Of a stretch of 6,386 nucleotides of DNA, positions 1 to 6,386 are shown in pieces. Below the pieces are notes generated by a model, which saw nothing but the letters and a program-made list of their open reading frames with translations, was not told the origin of the DNA and did not search any database. A program made the position numbers and the translations under genes. The stretch lies in the NCBI RefSeq assembly GCF_003334305.1, contig NZ_QOWS01000049.1. One strand, 5' to 3'. The stretch's first letter is position 1. Every line of letters starts with the position of its first letter. The DNA comes from Escherichia coli. GTDB taxonomy: Bacteria; Pseudomonadota; Gammaproteobacteria; Enterobacterales; Enterobacteriaceae.

Positions 1-62
1 AATCGGTGGAGCTGCATGACAAAGTCATCGGGCATTATCTGAACATAAAACACTATCAATAA
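1..62 (+). CDS. insB: IS1 transposase InsB, C-terminal fragment (5' part lies outside the window)
   Basis: The frame starting at nt 3 reads SVELHDKVIGHYLNIKHYQ followed by TAA at 60-62, which matches the InsB C-terminus as I recall it. Confidence 0.7.
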   Translation, partial: SVELHDKVIGHYLNIKHYQ

Positions 63-77
63 GTTGGAGTCATTACC
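1..77 (+). mobile_element. IS1 insertion sequence, right end only (element continues upstream of the window)
   Basis: Nt 1-77 match, from my memory of IS1, the last ~77 bp of the element in canonical orientation (AATCGGTGGAGCTGCATGACAAAGTCATCGGGCATTATCTGAACATAAAACACTATCAATAAGTTGGAGTCATTACC), ending with the right terminal inverted repeat at 55-77. Not verified by search. Confidence 0.85.
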
Positions 78-735
78 GTGCACGGTAACGGGCCATATCA
101 ATGAGCAGTTCCTCTCCAATTTTATTTGCCCCTAGAGAGCGGCGAGTTTTCTTCACTTCAATGACAATCTTCTCTTTCTTCAGAAGAAAATCCTGTCTGG
201 ATGATGAACCTGCGAAGCTAGGTGAATTTTCTTCAGGTCTGACATCATTAAAATGCAGCAGCAGAAGAGCATGAACAAGATCCTGTACATCATACTCGTC
301 ATTAATTTCAAGCGGCGTTCTGTCATTGTATCGTTGCTTTAATTGACGACAAAAAGCTGGAAATTTATTGAGTATATTTATAATCAAATCCAGTTCGGCA
401 TGTTTTGTTGCTATAGTCGATGCCGTGCCGGAGTAAGTTAAATCGTCTCTGGCTGCATCAAAAATAGGTTTGTAATGTCTAACCAATCCCTGATAATTAC
501 TAGACCAAGCAATCCTTTGTGTATCATTAAAATCTTTGTAGTAATCAGATTCCTTTCCATAACTGTCTTCAAGTAACTTTTTTGCTCTTGCAATCCAGTT
601 ATTACCTTTAGCCGAATCAATATATTCCTGGCTTCTGTGACTAAATGCACTTGTTCCCATATATTTTGTCGACATGACAGAATTGTACTCTTGTTCAAGC
701 ACTTCAAATCTTTCAGCTAAGGTCTTCTTCGTCAT
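73..735 (-). CDS. Hypothetical protein with a C-terminal PD-(D/E)xK-like nuclease motif; 3' end created by the IS1 junction, so probably truncated
   Basis: ORF track frame 73..747 (-). Position 747 is a TTG; the first ATG is at 735 (MTKKTLAERFE...), giving about 220 aa. The C-terminal region reads EYDVQDLVHALLLLHF ... SSSRQDFLLKKEKIVIEVKK: an acidic helix, a D in a hydrophobic strand, then E-V-K 11 residues later, the arrangement expected for a PD-(D/E)xK core (motif-level inference only). The last sense codon and the TAA stop (73-75) overlap the IS1 terminus, which ends at 77. Confidence 0.55.
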   Translation of the reverse strand: MTKKTLAERFEVLEQEYNSVMSTKYMGTSAFSHRSQEYIDSAKGNNWIARAKKLLEDSYGKESDYYKDFNDTQRIAWSSNYQGLVRHYKPIFDAARDDLTYSGTASTIATKHAELDLIINILNKFPAFCRQLKQRYNDRTPLEINDEYDVQDLVHALLLLHFNDVRPEENSPSFAGSSSRQDFLLKKEKIVIEVKKTRRSLGANKIGEELLIDMARYRAR

Positions 736-811
736 AGCGCAATCCAAATTATATGCTAATAATACCTGTGAATTTTAATATTCTACCATATCTGGCTTTC
801 TTCCGTTCACA

Positions 812-837
812 TTGGACATTCAGGTAATTTCGTCCAG
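812..837. repeat. Dyad-symmetric motif copy 1 (TTGGACATTCAGGTAATTTCGTCCAG)
   Basis: Inverted repeat TGGAC (813-817) / GTCCA (832-836) around a 14-bp spacer. It is homologous to the copies at 1710, 2259 and 5447. It lies in the divergent promoter region between the 73..735 ORF and the 905..1099 ORF. Confidence 0.6.
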
Positions 838-863
838 TTCTGCTGGCTGTGCTGGAGCTAGCC

Positions 864-872
864 TGGTATAAT
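864..872 (+). promoter_or_regulatory. Candidate sigma70 promoter, extended -10 (TGgTATAAT)
   Basis: TG at 864-865 and consensus TATAAT at 867-872; the -35 region is poor. It sits about 33 nt upstream of the ATG at 905, and GGTGG at 894-898 could serve as the ribosome-binding site. Confidence 0.45.
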
Positions 873-904
873 TTAACCAGCCATTTCAACAGCGGTGGTG
901 TCTT

Positions 905-1099
905 ATGAACGTCAAGAACATGTTTTACGGTGCCATTCTGGTAAGTGCTGTATGGGCGGTTATTTTGCTCTCATGGTTTGAATCCAGCCTTACCTTAAGC
1001 GATTACCTCAGGTACGAATCGGTAATCCTGATCCCATGCCTGCTGTGGGTTGCTGTTTATGGGTTAGGTAAACGTTACCTCCAAAGAACATCAAACTAG
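905..1099 (+). CDS. Small hypothetical membrane protein (64 aa, two predicted TM helices)
   Basis: ORF track frame. It has two hydrophobic stretches (FYGAILVSAVWAVILLSWF and VILIPCLLWVAVYGL) and a basic C-terminus, and is preceded by the extended -10 promoter and a GGTGG Shine-Dalgarno-like sequence. Confidence 0.5.
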   Translation: MNVKNMFYGAILVSAVWAVILLSWFESSLTLSDYLRYESVILIPCLLWVAVYGLGKRYLQRTSN

Positions 1100-1131
1100 C
1101 CGCGCCAGCGACTTTTTTTACACCTTCGTTT

Positions 1132-1164
1132 AATTCCCTGGCTCACCTGGACAGCCAGGGAATT
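1132..1164. terminator. Perfect 12-bp stem / 9-nt loop hairpin between convergent ORFs; possible bidirectional terminator or RNA stability element (no U tract)
   Basis: AATTCCCTGGCT (1132-1143) pairs perfectly with AGCCAGGGAATT (1153-1164). The loop CACCTGGAC carries the CACCTGGACA core seen in the dyad repeats. No clear U run follows on either strand, so the terminator call is weak. Confidence 0.35.
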
Positions 1165-1174
1165 CTGCCCAGCG

Positions 1175-1654
1175 CTACTGGCTTGCTGTGCCAAACTTTC
1201 CGTTGCAGATTTCCTCATTCACAATGGCCTGAAACATGGAAACAGAATTTCTAGCCTTATCCCTCAGTGCATTAATGAGTTCTGTGTCGTGTATTTTGTT
1301 GTAGAAAATGAAAGTAGAAACATCAAACTGGAGTTTAAATGCTGCTTTCCTTATGGCTAAACCTGACGTGATCGTTATCTCATTATGTATGCGAAGATAG
1401 GCAAGATAATCATCGTTATTTGCTTCACACTGCTCATATAAATATTTTTGCATGAGAGATTGAGACAAGGCCAGAAATTCCACATATCGTTTGGTTTTTA
1501 TTTCTTTATCTTTTAATCCCTGTACTGCCGCTTCTTTTTTTAATTCGTGCTTTTGTGTTAGCTTAAGAGTCAGCCACCCCCCTAAAATAGTCAGCAACGA
1601 CCCCAAACCTATTTTTACGGCATTATCAGCCACATCCACCCACTCAGTCGCCAT
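1175..1654 (-). CDS. Hypothetical protein with an N-terminal membrane anchor (159 aa)
   Basis: ORF track frame. It has one N-terminal hydrophobic helix (VKIGLGSLLTILGGWLTLKL) followed by a charged, probably helical soluble region. No family recognised. Confidence 0.5.
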   Translation of the reverse strand: MATEWVDVADNAVKIGLGSLLTILGGWLTLKLTQKHELKKEAAVQGLKDKEIKTKRYVEFLALSQSLMQKYLYEQCEANNDDYLAYLRIHNEITITSGLAIRKAAFKLQFDVSTFIFYNKIHDTELINALRDKARNSVSMFQAIVNEEICNGKFGTASQ

Positions 1655-1692
1655 CTGTTACTCGTTCTTCCTGTGATGATCATGGTTGCCAG

Positions 1693-1698
1693 TATAAT
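1693..1698 (+). promoter_or_regulatory. Candidate -10 hexamer (TATAAT) for the 1772..2221 ORF
   Basis: Consensus TATAAT at 1693-1698 in the 117-bp divergent intergenic region. The -35 is poor. The dyad motif at 1710-1735 would overlap the predicted transcription start. Confidence 0.3.
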
Positions 1699-1709
1699 TC
1701 CAGCACAGA

Positions 1710-1735
1710 CTGGACGTACAGCATTTTCTGTCCAG
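1710..1735. repeat. Dyad-symmetric motif copy 2 (CTGGACGTACAGCATTTTCTGTCCAG)
   Basis: Perfect inverted repeat CTGGAC (1710-1715) / GTCCAG (1730-1735) with a 14-bp spacer. It matches the copy at 5447-5472 at about 22 of 26 positions. It sits just downstream of the candidate -10 for the 1772..2221 ORF. Confidence 0.6.
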
Positions 1736-1771
1736 TAGACAGACTGTTACACTCAGGATAGGATAGCTTCT

Positions 1772-2221
1772 ATGGTTAAATTTCCAGGTGAAGTTATGAG
1801 TTCGTCCGCTGCTGTAACCGTTATAACTGGTGTTCTTGTTTTTGTTGGTGGTCAGCTCATTGTAAAGAGCGCGATTGAACCTTATATAGAATTCAAGAAA
1901 CAATTGGGAAAAATATCAAATCTGCTATTAGCTAACCAAGCTAAATTAGCTAATCCTTGTGCTGTTGAAATGTCTGAGATCATCCATGAGTTGAAAGATG
2001 CCGCAGCTCAGTTAATGTCGAAGCATTCAGCTTTGCCTTTCTATATCAAAAAATTCCATATCGGATTCCGCTTTGTTCCATCAACGCCTGAAATTATTAG
2101 TTCGGCGCAAAAATTGAATTTGATAGCATCAATACATGAAGGTAAAAGCAAGGAAAGTACATATGAGCACATAGCCGAGATTGGACGTATGCTCAAAATC
2201 CCAACCACCTATTCTCTTTAA
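1772..2221 (+). CDS. Hypothetical protein with an N-terminal membrane anchor (149 aa)
   Basis: ORF track frame. It has an N-terminal hydrophobic helix (AAVTVITGVLVFVGGQLIV) and a soluble C-terminal region. An alternative start at the ATG at 1796 is preceded by AGGTGA. It is followed by the bidirectional terminator at 2278-2304. Confidence 0.5.
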   Translation: MVKFPGEVMSSSAAVTVITGVLVFVGGQLIVKSAIEPYIEFKKQLGKISNLLLANQAKLANPCAVEMSEIIHELKDAAAQLMSKHSALPFYIKKFHIGFRFVPSTPEIISSAQKLNLIASIHEGKSKESTYEHIAEIGRMLKIPTTYSL

Positions 2222-2258
2222 TCTTCACGCCGATCAGATTACATAATCCACGCGCCAC

Positions 2259-2284
2259 CTGGACATTCAGGTAAAAAAGTCCAA
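2259..2284. repeat. Dyad-symmetric motif copy 3 (CTGGACATTCAGGTAAAAAAGTCCAA), fused to the terminator stem
   Basis: TGGAC (2260-2264) / GTCCA (2279-2283). The right half-site is also the 5' arm of the terminator hairpin at 2278-2304. Confidence 0.55.
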
Positions 2285-2358
2285 CTGGTGAGGTTGGGCT
2301 TTTTGGCTTTCCGGTTCTGTTGGTGGCTATGACCGGAGAAAATTGCTCTACACCTAAC
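2273..2358 (-). ncRNA. Candidate small RNA, orphan paralog of the antisense RNA at 4727..4814
   Basis: Homologous to 4727-4814 along its length: the same terminator architecture, the same internal hairpin (TCCGGT ... ACCGGA), and a conserved -10 (TAAAAT on the minus strand, plus-strand 2365-2370). The predicted 5' seed is different (GUAGAGCAAUUUUCUCC versus GUAGAGUGACUUCCUCC). No adjacent toxin gene, and no target found in the window. Confidence 0.4.
2278..2304. terminator. Bidirectional rho-independent terminator (A-tract / 8-bp stem / 7-nt loop / T-tract)
   Basis: AGTCCAAC (2278-2285) pairs with GTTGGGCT (2293-2300), with one G-U pair. The loop is TGGTGAG. A5 lies upstream and T5 downstream, so it reads as stem plus U-tract on both strands. 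It serves the 1772..2221 ORF on the plus strand and the sRNA candidate on the minus strand. Confidence 0.6.
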
Positions 2359-2393
2359 GCTTACATTTTATTTACAGCGTTTGATATCTTCCT

Positions 2394-2429
2394 CGCCTTT
2401 AACGCCTTTAACGCCTTTAACGCCTTTAA
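2394..2429. repeat. Perfect tandem repeat, 4 copies of the 9-bp unit CGCCTTTAA
   Basis: Direct reading: the unit CGCCTTTAA occurs at 2394, 2403, 2412 and 2421, followed by G6. It occupies the -35/upstream position of the sRNA candidate promoter at 2365-2370. Confidence 0.9.
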
Positions 2430-2798
2430 GGGGGGAAGATAGAGCAACTCACCGATGATGAATAAAGTGGACGAAGAGACGATAACTACACTCCCATCCA
2501 GGGGGGGGCTTTTTTTGTGGTACTGTAGTGTGGGAGTAAGTTCGGGTCTCATATTGAATGAGGCGATTGCGAGCTGCCTTTCATCGAAAACTAATGTCCA
2601 TTGTCATTGTATTGTCTGACTCTATCTCGTAACAAGTCTTTGACACAAAGTTTTATATTTTTATCAAAGTGGACATGAGGGGAATTAAATTTGTGATCTT
2701 TTTCAAATAATGTGTTCTTGATAGTAGATTCTGGTTAGTGATATCTATTAACAATATATTAAATTTCTTTTGTATTATCGCTGATAAAACTACTGTAT

Positions 2799-2807
2799 TG
2801 GTATACT
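2799..2807 (+). promoter_or_regulatory. Candidate extended -10 promoter (TGgTATACT) for the 500-aa ORF
   Basis: TG at 2799-2800 and TATACT at 2802-2807, inside a very AT-rich ~280-bp upstream region. A second candidate is TTGACA at 2640-2645. The ribosome-binding site AGGAG is at 2825-2829, 8 nt before the ATG at 2838. Confidence 0.4.
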
Positions 2808-2837
2808 ATATATTATTGAGTAACAGGAGATATCACT

Positions 2838-4340
2838 ATGAAGAAATTTTATCAATTTAGGGATGAACAGCGAAAGGAGCTTGAACAACATGATTTTTAT
2901 AGTTTGATTTCTTCAGATTGTATAGCGTTGAAAGACAAACTATTATTTGCTCCTGTTATGGCTCATTTCATAATGAACTTCAGAGACATGAATAAATGGG
3001 TTATCAGGTTTGATAACAATGATAATGAATATAAATCTGTTATAAACGGTGGAACAATCGAGGATGAAACACATTCAAGATTGTTTCTGGAAGACTGGAG
3101 GAAACTATATATAGATGACAAACTTAACTGGAAAGCAAGTGATGTTATATACTGGTTGTTTATTAGTCGAGAAATGGAGTGTTTCCGAAAATTTGGTATT
3201 GATTTTATGAGACTTTGTGTAGATGATGGAGGAGACCCAATACTTCGATATTCTCACTCCGAGTCAGGAGAAACTTGCGGTAATATATTCTTTTCAAGAA
3301 TTAGTCCTATTGCTGATCAAGTTGCCAATCATTTGGGAATATCACTCCGTTATTTTGGAACATTTCACCTTAATCTTGAAAATGGACATGTATGGAAGTC
3401 AGAAGGTGTTTTTGAAAATATAGAGTTGTCACCAGATTCTTATAAGAAAATGGCTACTCTATCAAAGAGAATGTTTGATATATTTGAAGGAATTCATGAC
3501 TCTTTTTATAATTACCTGTCCAGTTATGTTCTTAATGGAAGTCATCCGTCATTTTTTGAATCATTACCTGTAGGGAAAAATGTTGCACCTATATACCCTG
3601 AATTTGTGATAGAAAACAAAAGCCATAACGATGGTAGACATATTGAACATATAAACAATTACCTGGAAAAAATATCGAGTCATGAGTTCTTTAAATGGCT
3701 GGTTAACACCTCAATAGACCCTCAATTGAAATTGAAAAGTTTCATACCTCTTTGGATTGTTGATATTATGGGGTATAGAGATATTAATAAATATGTTTTT
3801 ACATATGAACAGCCTGAATCAGAAAGTGAAAAGATTATAAATGATTATGCATTACACTTGTCAGAGCATAGCCGTTTATTTTATCATGACTGGAAGTCAC
3901 TTCAACTTGATGATATGTTACGTTGGAGTGCCAGTGATACTCTTGAGTTTATTTTTCTTAATTCAGATATGGATATGCATAGAGAAAATATAGTTAAGTT
4001 TTCTTTGTTCGGATTAAAACACAGAGATCCTGTTATCAGGTTCTGGTTTATGATGATACTGGAGTTAAGTGGAAAAGAATTTTTCTCTCATGTTGGAGAT
4101 ATAGCTTTACAGGTGGAAAGTAAATATAATATTTATCTCCCATATTTATGTGGACGCCATGCAACAGAAAATGAGCATGAAGCATATAATAATATGTATG
4201 AGCATTTTATGGTAAAGGAACTTAGCCCTGAACAAAGTGATCTAATAATACAAATTACAGACATGGTTATGCGGTCATTATTGAATAATTTGGATATCTC
4301 ATATCGATATGTAGTAAATAATTTATTGGCAGCTCGTTAG
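2838..4340 (+). CDS. Hypothetical 500-aa protein made of two homologous ~220-aa halves; function unknown
   Basis: Long ORF with a strong AGGAG Shine-Dalgarno site, its own AT-rich promoter region and its own terminator. The two halves share ETHSRLFLEDWRKLYIDDKLNWKASD versus EHSRLFYHDWKSLQLDDMLRWSASD, FRDMNKWV versus YRDINKYV, and a later ELSP motif. No signal peptide or TM helix is apparent. Codon usage is strongly AT-biased compared with the flanking sequence. Confidence 0.8.
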   Translation: MKKFYQFRDEQRKELEQHDFYSLISSDCIALKDKLLFAPVMAHFIMNFRDMNKWVIRFDNNDNEYKSVINGGTIEDETHSRLFLEDWRKLYIDDKLNWKASDVIYWLFISREMECFRKFGIDFMRLCVDDGGDPILRYSHSESGETCGNIFFSRISPIADQVANHLGISLRYFGTFHLNLENGHVWKSEGVFENIELSPDSYKKMATLSKRMFDIFEGIHDSFYNYLSSYVLNGSHPSFFESLPVGKNVAPIYPEFVIENKSHNDGRHIEHINNYLEKISSHEFFKWLVNTSIDPQLKLKSFIPLWIVDIMGYRDINKYVFTYEQPESESEKIINDYALHLSEHSRLFYHDWKSLQLDDMLRWSASDTLEFIFLNSDMDMHRENIVKFSLFGLKHRDPVIRFWFMMILELSGKEFFSHVGDIALQVESKYNIYLPYLCGRHATENEHEAYNNMYEHFMVKELSPEQSDLIIQITDMVMRSLLNNLDISYRYVVNNLLAAR

Positions 4341-4374
4341 AAGAACAGCATTGGTATGACTCTGATGCTCCTTA

Positions 4375-4404
4375 AAATCCCACTTTTCAGAGTGGGATTT
4401 GTTT
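4375..4404 (+). terminator. Rho-independent terminator of the 500-aa ORF
   Basis: Perfect 10-bp stem AAATCCCACT (4375-4384) / AGTGGGATTT (4391-4400), loop TTTCAG, followed by GTTTAAT. It lies 35 nt after the TAG stop at 4338-4340. Confidence 0.65.
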
Positions 4405-4504
4405 AATGCCCAGAACAGGGGGAATTTCCATTCATGCCCAAAAAATATTTTGATGTCCTCTCGCCAATTCTCGCGCTCAGTCCTTCCTGAAAAACCTCAG
4501 AATT

Positions 4505-4645
4505 CACGTAGCGCATCGCCGCTACTGCATCCATCAAAAAAAATGACAGCTTTTTTAATCATCTTGTGTTACTCAACTTACTGAAAAATGTGATTTATGA
4601 AAATGCCGCCGTCGGCATCAAGCAGTTGGCCAGCGCAACCGGCTG
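4505..4645. repeat. Repeat block U, copy A (about 140-bp core; homologous to 5765-5905)
   Basis: Shared anchors, by eye about 75% identity: TTCACGTAGCG, TACTG-ATCCATCAA, AATGAC, CTACTGAAAAAT, GGC-ACAGCATC. The reading frames are not conserved between the two copies, so it is probably non-coding. Confidence 0.55.
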
Positions 4646-4726
4646 CATCGACCGCAACAAAAAAACTGAAAGAGAAAGCCCCTCAAATGAGGGAGAAAAA
4701 AAGGAAGTGCAGTCAACGAGAGGCGT

Positions 4727-4814
4727 AAAAAACCCGACTGGTGAGGTCGGGTTTTAATACGGTTCCGGTTCTGAGTTGGTGGCTCTGACCGGAGGAAGTC
4801 ACTCTACACCTAAC
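4727..4814 (-). ncRNA. Candidate antisense small RNA (type I antitoxin-like), divergent from the 31-aa peptide gene
   Basis: Minus-strand promoter: TTGCAA (4844-4849), 17-bp spacer, TAAAAT (plus-strand 4821-4826). The predicted start is near 4814. The terminator is stem CCCGAC (4733-4738) / GTCGGG (4746-4751) with loop TGGTGAG and a U6 run on the minus strand. The first 24 nt (complement of 4791-4814) pair with plus-strand 5026-5049 in the peptide mRNA leader (23 Watson-Crick pairs plus one G-U). Confidence 0.5.
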
Positions 4815-4820
4815 GTTTAC

Positions 4821-4849
4821 ATTTTATGCACTCAGCCGCAGTATTGCAA
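4821..4849 (-). promoter_or_regulatory. Candidate sigma70 promoter of the antisense RNA (-35 TTGCAA, -10 TAAAAT, 17-bp spacer)
   Basis: Read on the minus strand: TTGCAA, then TACTGCGGCTGAGTGCA, then TAAAAT. Confidence 0.45.
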
Positions 4850-4903
4850 CTAACTGTGGTTAAGGCACCACATTTAGTTGTGTATCGTGGGTTTTATATA
4901 CCT

Positions 4904-4909
4904 TATAAT
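4904..4909 (+). promoter_or_regulatory. Candidate -10 (TATAAT) for the peptide mRNA, implying a leader of about 210 nt
   Basis: Consensus TATAAT at 4904-4909 with an AT-rich upstream region; the -35 is poor. It is divergent from the antisense RNA promoter, about 55 bp away. Confidence 0.3.
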
Positions 4910-5025
4910 CATGAAGTTAGCCGTGTGGTGTGGCTTCTTCCTCTGCCCTTCCCGTTTATGCAGGTATGAACGATTTTAAAGTCCTGGCTGAACAAACAGG
5001 TGGTGCTGTGTTTAGTGCTCTGGCA

Positions 5026-5049
5026 GGAGGAAGTCACTCTGCACCTAAC
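5026..5049 (+). promoter_or_regulatory. Predicted antisense RNA target site in the peptide mRNA leader
   Basis: GGAGGAAGTCACTCTGCACCTAAC (5026-5049) differs at one position (A to G) from plus-strand 4791-4814, so it is complementary to the 5' end of the minus-strand RNA with one G-U wobble. Confidence 0.5.
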
Positions 5050-5102
5050 AATGCGAGAGAACCGTTGTGACAGGCAGTGTAAGAGCAAGCAACGGTGATT
5101 TC

Positions 5103-5119
5103 CTCCAGTTTTACTGGAG
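5103..5119 (+). promoter_or_regulatory. Hairpin sequestering the Shine-Dalgarno sequence of the peptide gene
   Basis: CTCCAG (5103-5108), loop TTTTA, CTGGAG (5114-5119). The SD GGAG (5116-5119) is inside the 3' arm. TTCCTCC at 5100-5106 could alternatively pair with GGAGGAA at 5026-5032. Confidence 0.4.
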
Positions 5120-5125
5120 AAACGG

Positions 5126-5221
5126 ATGATTAATCTGTTAATCATCGTTCTCAGGGCTGTGGTCGCCGTTGCAAACGCGCTGATTGCAATTCTGGAACTG
5201 ATTCGCCAGTTCATCGACTGA
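5126..5221 (+). CDS. 31-aa hydrophobic peptide, type I toxin-like (MINLLIIVLRAVVAVANALIAILELIRQFID)
   Basis: ATG at 5126 with GGAG 6 nt upstream. An in-frame stop lies upstream at 5096-5098, so this is the first possible start. The peptide has one predicted TM helix and a charged C-terminus. A near-identical paralog is at 6044..6139. It is not in the ORF track, which lists only the antisense frame 4909..5214. Confidence 0.6.
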   Translation: MINLLIIVLRAVVAVANALIAILELIRQFID

Positions 5222-5446
5222 TGACAGCGGAAACGTAACTAAGGACAGGAAGTGAACCGCTTCCTGCCCTTTAACATACTGTGATATTTTTCAAAAAAAC
5301 TCACCAATATTCTCCTCGGCAGAAATGACATAACTCACTGTAAAATAACAAATCATCTAAACGCCAGCTTTGTATTGAGCGCGTTGGCCAACGCCTTTAT
5401 CAGCTGCGACCGCACCAGATAATTTGAATAAGATTTCCCGCATCAC

Positions 5447-5472
5447 CTGGACATACAGGTTATTCTGTCCAT
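5447..5472. repeat. Dyad-symmetric motif copy 4 (CTGGACATACAGGTTATTCTGTCCAT)
   Basis: TGGACA (5449-5454) / TGTCCA (5466-5471), with an inner dyad ACCTG ... CAGGT. It lies in the spacer between the two peptide units. Confidence 0.6.
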
Positions 5473-5764
5473 ACCTCATTAGTTACAACATTCACGCGTT
5501 CTGTTCCTTTATCCGGTGCCCTGTTCCAGTATATGTGCCCATATCCTGGGTTATTCAGGATAACCGCTTCCTTTTCGCCCTGTCCTGTCGTTCATATCCC
5601 CCTGGACAAAAATGCATTATCGGAAAAAATGTCCAAAATTTTTTTGGTGATCGGAATTTTTGTTGTCGGACGCACCTCTTCTTCAGGTCATAATTGCTGA
5701 CACATCCCAAAAAACAGGAGCGGAGATTTAAAAATTGAGTCACTTACCCGCCAAAATTTTCCAG

Positions 5765-5905
5765 ATTTCACGTAGCGTACCGTCGATACTGTATCCATCA
5801 ACAAATGACTATTTTTTGAATGTGTCATTTCCTGTAACCTACTGAAAAATATCAGTGAATGACAATATCGGCGACAGCATCGGAGCTGATAGCCAGTTTC
5901 CTGAA
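5765..5905. repeat. Repeat block U, copy B (homologous to 4505-4645)
   Basis: Same anchors as copy A. It is preceded by a candidate -10 (CATAAT, 5689-5694) and followed by the hairpin at 5994-6032. Confidence 0.55.
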
Positions 5906-5993
5906 TGCATATGGCCAGAACAGTAAATTTGAACCAGGTTCTCACGTCACCAGGCGACGTGTCTGGGAAACTGGTGAACAACAGGCACAGAAA

Positions 5994-6032
5994 AGCCCAA
6001 CTTTATGGGGGTCAGTTCAGTGAGGTTGGGCT
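5994..6032. terminator. Hairpin homologous to the sRNA terminators (8-bp stem, enlarged 23-nt loop), directly upstream of the second peptide gene
   Basis: AGCCCAAC (5994-6001) pairs perfectly with GTTGGGCT (6025-6032). The loop ends in TCAGTGAG, compared with TGGTGAG in the other copies. On the plus strand, A4 lies upstream and no U tract follows. Confidence 0.45.
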
Positions 6033-6043
6033 AAGAGAAACGA

Positions 6044-6139
6044 ATGATTAACCTGTTAATCATCATTCTCAGGGATGTGGTCGCCGTTGCAAACGCGCGG
6101 ATTGCAGTTCTGGAACTGATTCGCCAGTTCATCGTTTGA
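6044..6139 (+). CDS. Second copy of the 31-aa peptide (MINLLIIILRDVVAVANARIAVLELIRQFIV), possibly degenerate
   Basis: ATG at 6044 with a weaker ribosome-binding site (AAGAG). It differs from copy 1 at 7 nt (V8I, A11D, L19R, I22V, D31V, one synonymous), and two of these put charged residues in the hydrophobic core. It lacks the sRNA, promoter and leader block present upstream of copy 1. Confidence 0.45.
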   Translation: MINLLIIILRDVVAVANARIAVLELIRQFIV

Positions 6140-6309
6140 TGACAGCGGAAACGTAACTCAGGACAGGAAGTTCCAAATAGCTCCCAGCCAGCATATGTAA
6201 TTTTCAAAGGGGCAGTTGTTAACTCTGTAATAACGCCATGTAAAGTATTCCTGCCCCCTCCATGATCCTCCATAGTATTTCTTGAGTTAATTTTCAAAAA
6301 GCTTCTGAT

Positions 6310-6386
6310 GGTGATGCTGCCAACTTACTGATTTAGTGTATGATGGTGTTTTTGAGGTGCTCCAGTGGCTTCTGTTTCTATCAGCT
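6310..6386 (+). mobile_element. IS1 insertion sequence, left end (element continues beyond the window)
   Basis: GGTGATGCTGCCAACTTACTGATTTAGTGTATGATGGTGTTTTTGAGGTGCTCCAGTGGCTTCTGTTTCTATCAGCT matches the IS1 left inverted repeat and the insA 5' region as I recall them. It is in the same orientation as the IS1 fragment at 1-77. Confidence 0.9.
6365..6386 (+). CDS. insA: IS1 InsA, N-terminal fragment (GTG start; continues beyond the window)
   Basis: GTG GCT TCT GTT TCT ATC AGC translates to (M)ASVSIS, the InsA N-terminus as I recall it. Confidence 0.7.

Follow-up and report, generated by a model that had tools for sequence, protein, structure and literature searches.

The interval between two IS1 copies

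The 6,386-nt stretch of Escherichia coli DNA analysed here (contig NZ_QOWS01000049.1 of assembly GCF_003334305.1; hereafter the window) begins inside one copy of the insertion sequence IS1 and ends inside another. The cargo between them holds a nuclease-fold gene cut short at its 3′ end, small genes of hypothetical proteins, the gene of a 500-amino-acid (aa) protein, two dqlB type I toxin genes and five related 24-nt sites (Table 1). The analysis was computational throughout, and relatives were surveyed among complete E. coli genomes and the plasmids of PLSDB. The window equals positions 21029–27414 of plasmid pECOS88 of E. coli S88 (NC_011747.1), with 2 mismatches, at 2936 and 5276. Along pECOS88 the annotation lists sitDCBA and an IS1A-family element, then a PD-(D/E)XK nuclease pseudogene marked 'missing C-terminus' and four hypothetical genes; two genes for dqlB type I toxins and another IS1A-family element follow, ahead of sopA and sopB.

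IS1 is a 768-bp element with imperfect terminal inverted repeats and an InsA/InsAB′ transposase produced via a programmed frameshift. The original prediction read same-orientation IS1 ends at both edges of the window, and pECOS88 agrees with that reading: beyond the window ends both copies are complete, with terminal inverted repeats GGTGATGCTGCCAACTTACTGAT and GGTAATGACTCCAACTTATTGAT, and each is annotated in RefSeq as 'IS1-like element IS1A family transposase' with the programmed frameshift. Each end matches IS1 at 77 of 77 nt and is thus not a chance match. The left and right copies differ at 9 of 768 positions. A third copy, inverted, lies at pECOS88 4048–4815 and differs from the left copy at 1 position; together they enclose the aerobactin (iuc/iut) and sitABCD genes (4048–21105), a segment found in both orientations among relatives. 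Because this segment inverts between its inverted IS1 pair, the IS1 at the truncated gene is bordered on its far side by iutA in some plasmids and by sitA in others.

The truncated gene encodes a PD-(D/E)XK protein of the DpnII-MboI type. On the minus strand the junction reads ...CGT TAC CGT GCA C|GG TAA, so that gene base 78 and IS1 bases 77 and 76 form the last sense codon. The left IS1 had been predicted to supply the stop codon of this open reading frame (ORF); it does so entirely (75–73), and contributes two bases of the last codon as well.

Full-length homologues (669 homologues examined) have 260–265 aa, or about 280–291 aa with an N-terminal extension. An intact allele (P0001; 263 aa, 99% identical) is found on IncX1 plasmids. 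DNA identity with this allele, which runs for about 750 nt with 7 mismatches, stops exactly at the IS1 end, and in the protein alignment the window sequence stops at ...MARYRA where homologues go on HPDCETLVCFVYDP...VVIAQF. What the gene has lost amounts to 134 nt, or 44 residues and the stop codon. The longer homologues, the break in DNA identity and the RefSeq remark on the C-terminus all agree with the original view of the ORF as a 3′-truncated remnant, and its intact form could be recovered from an IS1-free allele carried by IncX1 plasmids.

The further suggestion that additional domains might once have followed the PD-(D/E)XK region finds no support. P0001 contains one DpnII-MboI domain, at residues 118–262 (positions 3–149 of the 150-position model PF18742, E 4e-49), and only the end of it is missing from the window copy, which stops at residue 219 with ∼30% of the domain gone and is hence a truncated member of the family. 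PADLOC relates the nuclease domain to the restriction endonuclease (REase) effector of Argonaute-associated proteins. Many database records name the nuclease-fold protein 'malate dehydrogenase', a name without support from Pfam, NCBIfam, PADLOC or PHROG that looks like a propagated misannotation.

The left IS1 had also been taken to have inserted into existing coding sequence. The gene is indeed cut at IS1, but simple insertion does not describe the junction: the missing 134 nt are absent from the whole of pECOS88 (blastn, word size 7), where only a 72% match of the intergenic tail was returned, and a deletion or rearrangement must therefore also have been involved. No IS1-free allele of the left junction was found in a ColV context; the intact alleles found belong, with few exceptions, to IncX1-type plasmids of ∼35 kb, and the listed ones include no ColV-type plasmid.

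Table 1. Features of the window, with positions counted from its first nucleotide
Feature	Position	Strand	Details
Left IS1, right inverted repeat (IRR) end	1–77	+	last 77 bp; ends ...AAGTTGGAGTCATTACC; full 768-bp copy at pECOS88 20338–21105
TAA stop of truncated ORF	73–75	−	wholly within IS1 terminal repeat
Truncated PD-(D/E)XK gene, DpnII-MboI type (PF18742)	76–735	−	219 native codons and one hybrid Arg codon; ATG at 735; RefSeq pseudogene
Cargo between IS1 copies	78–6309		6,232 bp
Site 1	813–836	+	TGGACATTCAGGTAATTTCGTCCA; module boundary
64-aa ORF	905–1099	+	unannotated; hydrophobic stretch; sole ORF between sites 1 and 2; found by gene callers in IncX1 contigs
Site 2	1148–1171	+	TGGACAGCCAGGGAATTCTGCCCA
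159-aa hypothetical protein	1175–1654	−	WP_000190053.1; identical protein encoded on IncX1 plasmids
Site 3	1711–1734	+	TGGACGTACAGCATTTTCTGTCCA; IncX1 homology breaks at its 3′ end
149-aa hypothetical protein	1772–2221	+	RefSeq start 1796; matches phrog_7512, function unknown
Site 4	2260–2283	+	TGGACATTCAGGTAAAAAAGTCCA; left boundary of 3.2-kb module shared with pO111-110512_3
AgrB-family antisense small RNA (sRNA) copy	2271–2357	−	Rfam RF02891, 46 bits; no adjacent toxin gene
500-aa protein gene	2838–4340	+	29–35% G+C stretch
AgrB antisense sRNA	4725–4813	−	RF02891, 64 bits; presumed antitoxin of dqlB copy 1
dqlB copy 1	5126–5221	+	DinQ-like type I toxin; NF041473, 72.4 bits
Site 5	5448–5471	+	TGGACATACAGGTTATTCTGTCCA; right flank is the recombinase-proximal flank of IncX1 arrays
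Remnant of IncX1 tyrosine-recombinase gene	5737–5777	+	first ∼40 nt; homology to intact gene ends at 5777
dqlB copy 2	6044–6139	+	NF041473, 58.2 bits
Right IS1, left inverted repeat (IRL) end	6310–6386	+	first 77 bp; starts GGTGATGCTGCCAACTTACTG...; full 768-bp copy at pECOS88 27338–28105

Proposed origin and decay of the interval

Related plasmids retain different lengths of the interval, forming a nested series. The largest cargo, 12,791 bp in pEND_Eco18005, spans window 78–6309 and runs on without an IS1 into mcjA-D, followed by an IS3, a truncated resolvase gene and only then the right IS1. Cargo amounts to 6,232 bp in pECOS88 itself (window 78–6309), to 5,978 bp in Br_54_kylling p1 (332–6309), to about 3.9 kb in pHNAH8212R-1 (509–4440), where the left IS1 is absent, and to 1,995 bp in p_STEC1590_1 (2625–4619), where the 500-aa gene is the sole cargo gene remaining. 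The outer junctions are constant. Every series member with a right IS1 has the junction IS1|GCCTTGACC-sopA, and members with a left IS1 have on its other side either iutA (TACCATGAA|IS1) or sitA (GAAGGGATC|IS1). This continuation past window position 6309, with the microcin J25 cluster mcjABCD, the IS3 and the truncated resolvase gene, corresponds to L015 5761–12300 (pEND_Eco18005) and to L008 from 11003 onward.

About 285 E. coli genomes carry a single-IS1 form with zero cargo, arranged without interruption as iutA–IS1–sopA in 281 and as sitA–IS1–sopA in 4, and with precisely the two outer flanks of the cargo-bearing forms. This is the junction expected if, as had been proposed, IS1 bounds an excisable module. 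Several of the single IS1 copies are mosaics, left-type at positions 117–258 and right-type at 357–687.

Flanks of 9 nt and 8 nt were compared for the three IS1 copies of pECOS88 and for those of eight related plasmids, and no pair matched. In pECOS88 the IRL-side and IRR-side flanks are GAAGGGATC and GTGCACGGT for the left copy, GCTTCTGAT and GCCTTGACC for the right copy, and TACCATGAA and TGCTTTTTC for the third. Among these three copies and six flanks no IRL-side flank equals any IRR-side flank, even when inversion between inverted copies is allowed for. An 8–9-bp duplication is absent from the outer ends (GAAGGGATC, or TACCATGAA in relatives, against GCCTTGACC) and from the inner ends (GTGCACGGT against GCTTCTGAT). 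Since the flanks never match, neither the individual copies nor the pair shows a target duplication, and undoing an exchange between copies does not reveal one.

The genomic context is uniform as well. At least 80% of the window is present in 49 genomes, and the truncated gene with its IS1 adjoins iutA (54) or sitA (6) on ColV-type plasmids in 60 of 60 records among those listed. At the right end, sopA is the neighbour in all 7 of the IS1|sopA junctions read base by base, and 3 of these junctions (L001, L007 and L015) bound cargo.

Parts of the cargo closely resemble IncX1 sequence. Window 78–1735 is 99.8% identical to ∼35-kb IncX1 plasmids (e.g. NZ_CP023905.1), in which the nuclease gene is intact and stands beside the 159-aa gene; window 2260–5468 is 97% identical to a module on the IncX1 plasmid pO111-110512_3; and window 5447–5777, which includes the first ∼40 nt of a tyrosine-recombinase gene, is 89% identical to adjacent IncX1 sequence.

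The nested series has the pattern expected from IS1 adjacent deletions at both inner ends together with direct-repeat recombination. In our assessment the IS1 pair probably marks the edges of a foreign plasmid block in the ColV/ColBM (IncFIB/FII) lineage, eroded by adjacent deletions and lost by IS1–IS1 recombination, and not a transposed unit. The block sits between the aerobactin/sit region and sopAB and in its largest version also includes the microcin J25 cluster; its source would be the accessory region of an IncX1-type plasmid. The outer junction of each IS1 would stay in place, and deletions would begin at the inner end and cut into the block, as in classical IS1 adjacent deletion. One adjacent deletion, or the original IS1 junction, would have removed the last 134 nt of the nuclease gene, and the IS1 end now provides the Arg codon and TAA. 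As the two IS1 copies lie in direct repeat, a crossover between them would drop the whole block together with one IS1, yielding the single-IS1 plasmids. Loss rather than gain as the direction of change is something we infer, as is the block's mode of arrival, for which an IS1 cointegrate with an IncX1-like plasmid appears the most economical origin.

Several observations weigh against this account. The mosaic pattern is also seen in the left IS1 of L008, whose block remains in place, so the mosaics show IS1–IS1 exchange in general and not this particular crossover, and are supportive only. No plasmid was found with the 3′ part of the nuclease gene beside an IS1; the first event at the left junction can therefore not be reconstructed. 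Nor is the direction proven: the single-IS1 plasmids could be ancestral and the block gained by IS1 cointegration.

This last possibility, which partly overlaps with decay of a foreign block and differs from it only in the polarity of the zero-cargo state, can be stated in full. Replicative IS1 transposition would have joined a ColV plasmid with one IS1 (iutA/sitA–IS1–sopA) to an IncX1-like/microcin J25 plasmid, the target lying inside the nuclease gene, and the inner-end deletions would have come later. It is attractive in that one step would yield IS1 copies in direct repeat, neither of them framed by a duplication, along with outer flanks identical to those of the single-IS1 plasmids and the break in the gene, and the cargo is indeed derived from a plasmid. 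However, the single IS1 is itself without a target duplication (TACCATGAA vs GCCTTGACC), a second copy of GTGCACGGT, which the fusion should have left at the far inner end, is absent in the largest version examined (pEND_Eco18005), and an autonomous plasmid with the full cargo order was not found. We regard single-IS1 ancestors as rather unlikely.

Two complete, apparently intact direct IS1 copies around cargo are the architecture of Tn9, one of the structures named in the original prediction, but a Tn9-type composite transposon that brought the 6.2-kb cargo into the plasmid as one unit is highly improbable given the missing 8–9-bp duplication at the outer ends, the 9 of 768 positions at which the copies are unlike, inner ends that vary among relatives where outer ends are constant, the single genomic context in all 60 records listed with no independent location, and the right IS1 of pEND_Eco18005, which sits 6.6 kb farther out.

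Cargo genes and the 24-nt site array

The cargo is divided by five TGGACA-N12-TGTCCA sites, all on the plus strand (consensus TGGACAtacaGGTnATTCTGTCCA), with one gene or a small gene set between successive sites. Their position-weight scores range from 27.7 to 38.4, against a maximum of 18 in shuffled sequence. An IncX1 plasmid has four such sites in one orientation, located only from the recombinase gene to just beyond the nuclease gene, where chance would give 0.5 per 35 kb. Another plasmid has eight or nine sites, which bound seven different modules, HigBA and a CopG set among them, and further arrays, each in one orientation, lie at L017 10125–11950, L018 518–6323 and L040 1647–9686.

Flanks are found recombined at the sites. 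One left flank is joined via the core to three different right flanks, the converse is also seen, and in many pairs BLAST homology between arrays begins or ends within a few nt of the core edges. In L019 and L020 homology is interrupted past the nuclease gene, but these breaks proved to be plain Tn3 and IS26 insertions rather than site-mediated events. Sites of the dif/cer-like Xer type and of the shufflon sfx type have likewise been set aside, on the look of their sequences. The ∼150 nt to the left of site 5 (5291–5439) are 72% identical to L017 11978–12126, which lies left of the site after the nuclease gene in IncX1 and has different neighbouring genes; this stretch may be a conserved module end.

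The recombinase encoded beside the IncX1 sites is a generic Xer-like tyrosine recombinase of 274 aa (WP_000018882.1). It scores 54.5 bits against the integron-integrase model TIGR02249, far below the cut-off of 265. Plasmids of Erwinia, Cronobacter and Salmonella and metagenomic plasmids, all with unrelated backbones, carry homologues of 66–71% identity together with sites of this kind. Over these homologue loci and two IncX1 loci, 29 of 32 site matches lie upstream of the recombinase gene and on its strand (p about 8e-15), and the proximal site is found 265–343 bp before the recombinase start codon. In the window the rest of the recombinase gene has been replaced by a dqlB module, a truncation shared with plasmids L018 and L019. 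With the gene reduced to ∼40 nt, the array of the window's plasmid is without a recombinase of its own. A stretch related to the region of the recombinase remnant is present at window 4421–4634.

These features lead us to propose, tentatively, that the cargo is a fossil fragment of an apparently undescribed Enterobacterales plasmid cassette system, made up of an Xer-like recombinase gene, a proximal site upstream of it and, farther upstream, a one-directional array of 24-nt sites at which modules would be inserted, excised and exchanged. The modules of this putative system include toxin–antitoxin pairs, nuclease-fold, Abi, PIN, SLATT and HEPN proteins, and a tandem AetD-like enzyme.

The sites might instead bind other proteins, as operators or partition sites do, with modules shuffled by homologous recombination at short repeats and not by a tyrosine recombinase. 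Consistent with this, the link between recombinase and sites rests on sequence, some sites precede genes and others follow them, and a ParA-type ATPase gene adjoins the recombinase gene in several plasmids. Sites are also present, however, in Cronobacter plasmids without a ParA gene beside the recombinase gene. The 29-of-32 bias towards one orientation upstream of the recombinase gene and the homology breaks that numerous independent pairs show just a few nt from the core edges likewise argue against such an origin, and imperfect 24-nt repeats are poor RecA substrates. We consider this explanation doubtful.

Literature on the site sequence, on IncX cassette or integron-like arrays and on an IncX multimer-resolution recombinase yielded no relevant paper, an absence that is weak evidence since subscription journals were mostly uncovered. 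We thus offer the seemingly undescribed site-delimited array as a lead, with no claim of priority.

Family searches of the cargo proteins (NCBIfam, PADLOC, PHROGs and Pfam) returned only DqlB, the REase fold, phrog_7512 and phrog_29450, both PHROGs being of unknown function. Both DqlB peptides, of 31 aa each, score above the NF041473 cut-off of 35 bits and have AgrB-family RNAs nearby; their genes lie inside a 137-nt direct repeat (5117–5253 and 6035–6171) whose copies are 93% identical. The term dqlB is reportedly recurrent in recent papers on plasmid maintenance, PMC12365149 and PMC12317039.

The 500-aa protein has no match in Pfam, NCBIfam, PADLOC or PHROG and belongs to a widespread family without a Pfam domain or an informative name. 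Its family profile matches the nitrile synthase AetD over residues 1–237 (E 5e-37), and its AlphaFold model (pLDDT 92.9) gives Foldseek target-normalised TM-scores of 0.83–0.91 to AetD chains. The D-W and His positions are conserved and recur in both halves. On the combined profile and fold match we read it as a predicted tandem of two AetD-like heme-oxygenase-like diiron domains. Upstream of its gene, window 2394–2429 is a perfect tandem repeat of CGCCTTTAA, present four times.

The direct IS1 repeats and the truncated ORF are real, already annotated in RefSeq and mechanistically ordinary; IS1-driven deletion is textbook knowledge, and the IS1 finding in itself carries little weight. Its use is as a worked example: an insertion-sequence pair around cargo should not be taken for a composite transposon unless target duplications and a second location are also seen. 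In ColV virulence plasmids the iron-uptake region and sopAB are separated by an IS1-bounded interval, variable and decaying, that can serve as a lineage marker. What makes the interval most interesting is its array of site-delimited modules, a feature absent from the original prediction. If the 24-nt sites are substrates of the recombinase, Enterobacterales conjugative plasmids would have their own integron-like means of gathering addiction and defence modules.

Comparison with known systems

Tn9 and other IS1 composite transposons resemble the interval in that two full, direct IS1 copies enclose non-IS DNA. Unlike them, the interval lacks a target duplication, is seen at one location only and carries no selectable gene; its inner junctions vary between relatives, and its IS1 copies are not identical. 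Classical IS1 adjacent deletion with IS1–IS1 recombination shares the fixed IS1 and outer flank, the nested inner end-points and the single-IS1 product with hybrid flanks; we see no difference, and the data fit it. The likeness to the IS1-flanked aerobactin region of the pColV-K30 type lies in the left IS1 of the window, which belongs to the inverted pair (4048–4815 and 20338–21105) around iuc/iut–sit. The interval described here, in contrast, is the next one, from the left IS1 to the directly oriented copy before sopA.

The array itself is best compared with integrons, whose attC sites are imperfect inverted repeats of 57–141 nt that form single-strand hairpins. Both have a tyrosine recombinase gene, a proximal site and a one-directional array of short modules with recombination-site-like repeats, and both hold many addiction- or defence-type genes. 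Unlike in integrons, the recombinase is not an integron integrase, the sites, to judge from their sequence, are 24-nt imperfect palindromes rather than attC hairpins, the module genes lie in either orientation, and the system is plasmid-borne. Acinetobacter pdif modules and the Cre/loxP, ResD/rfsF and Rsd/crs systems are similar in that short plasmid sites of the tyrosine-recombinase type bound exchangeable modules and the recombinase gene stands beside partition genes. In contrast to pdif and dimer-resolution systems, the sites described here bear, by eye, no likeness to the dif/cer XerC–XerD consensus, are all direct rather than alternating, and accompany a recombinase that is plasmid-encoded.

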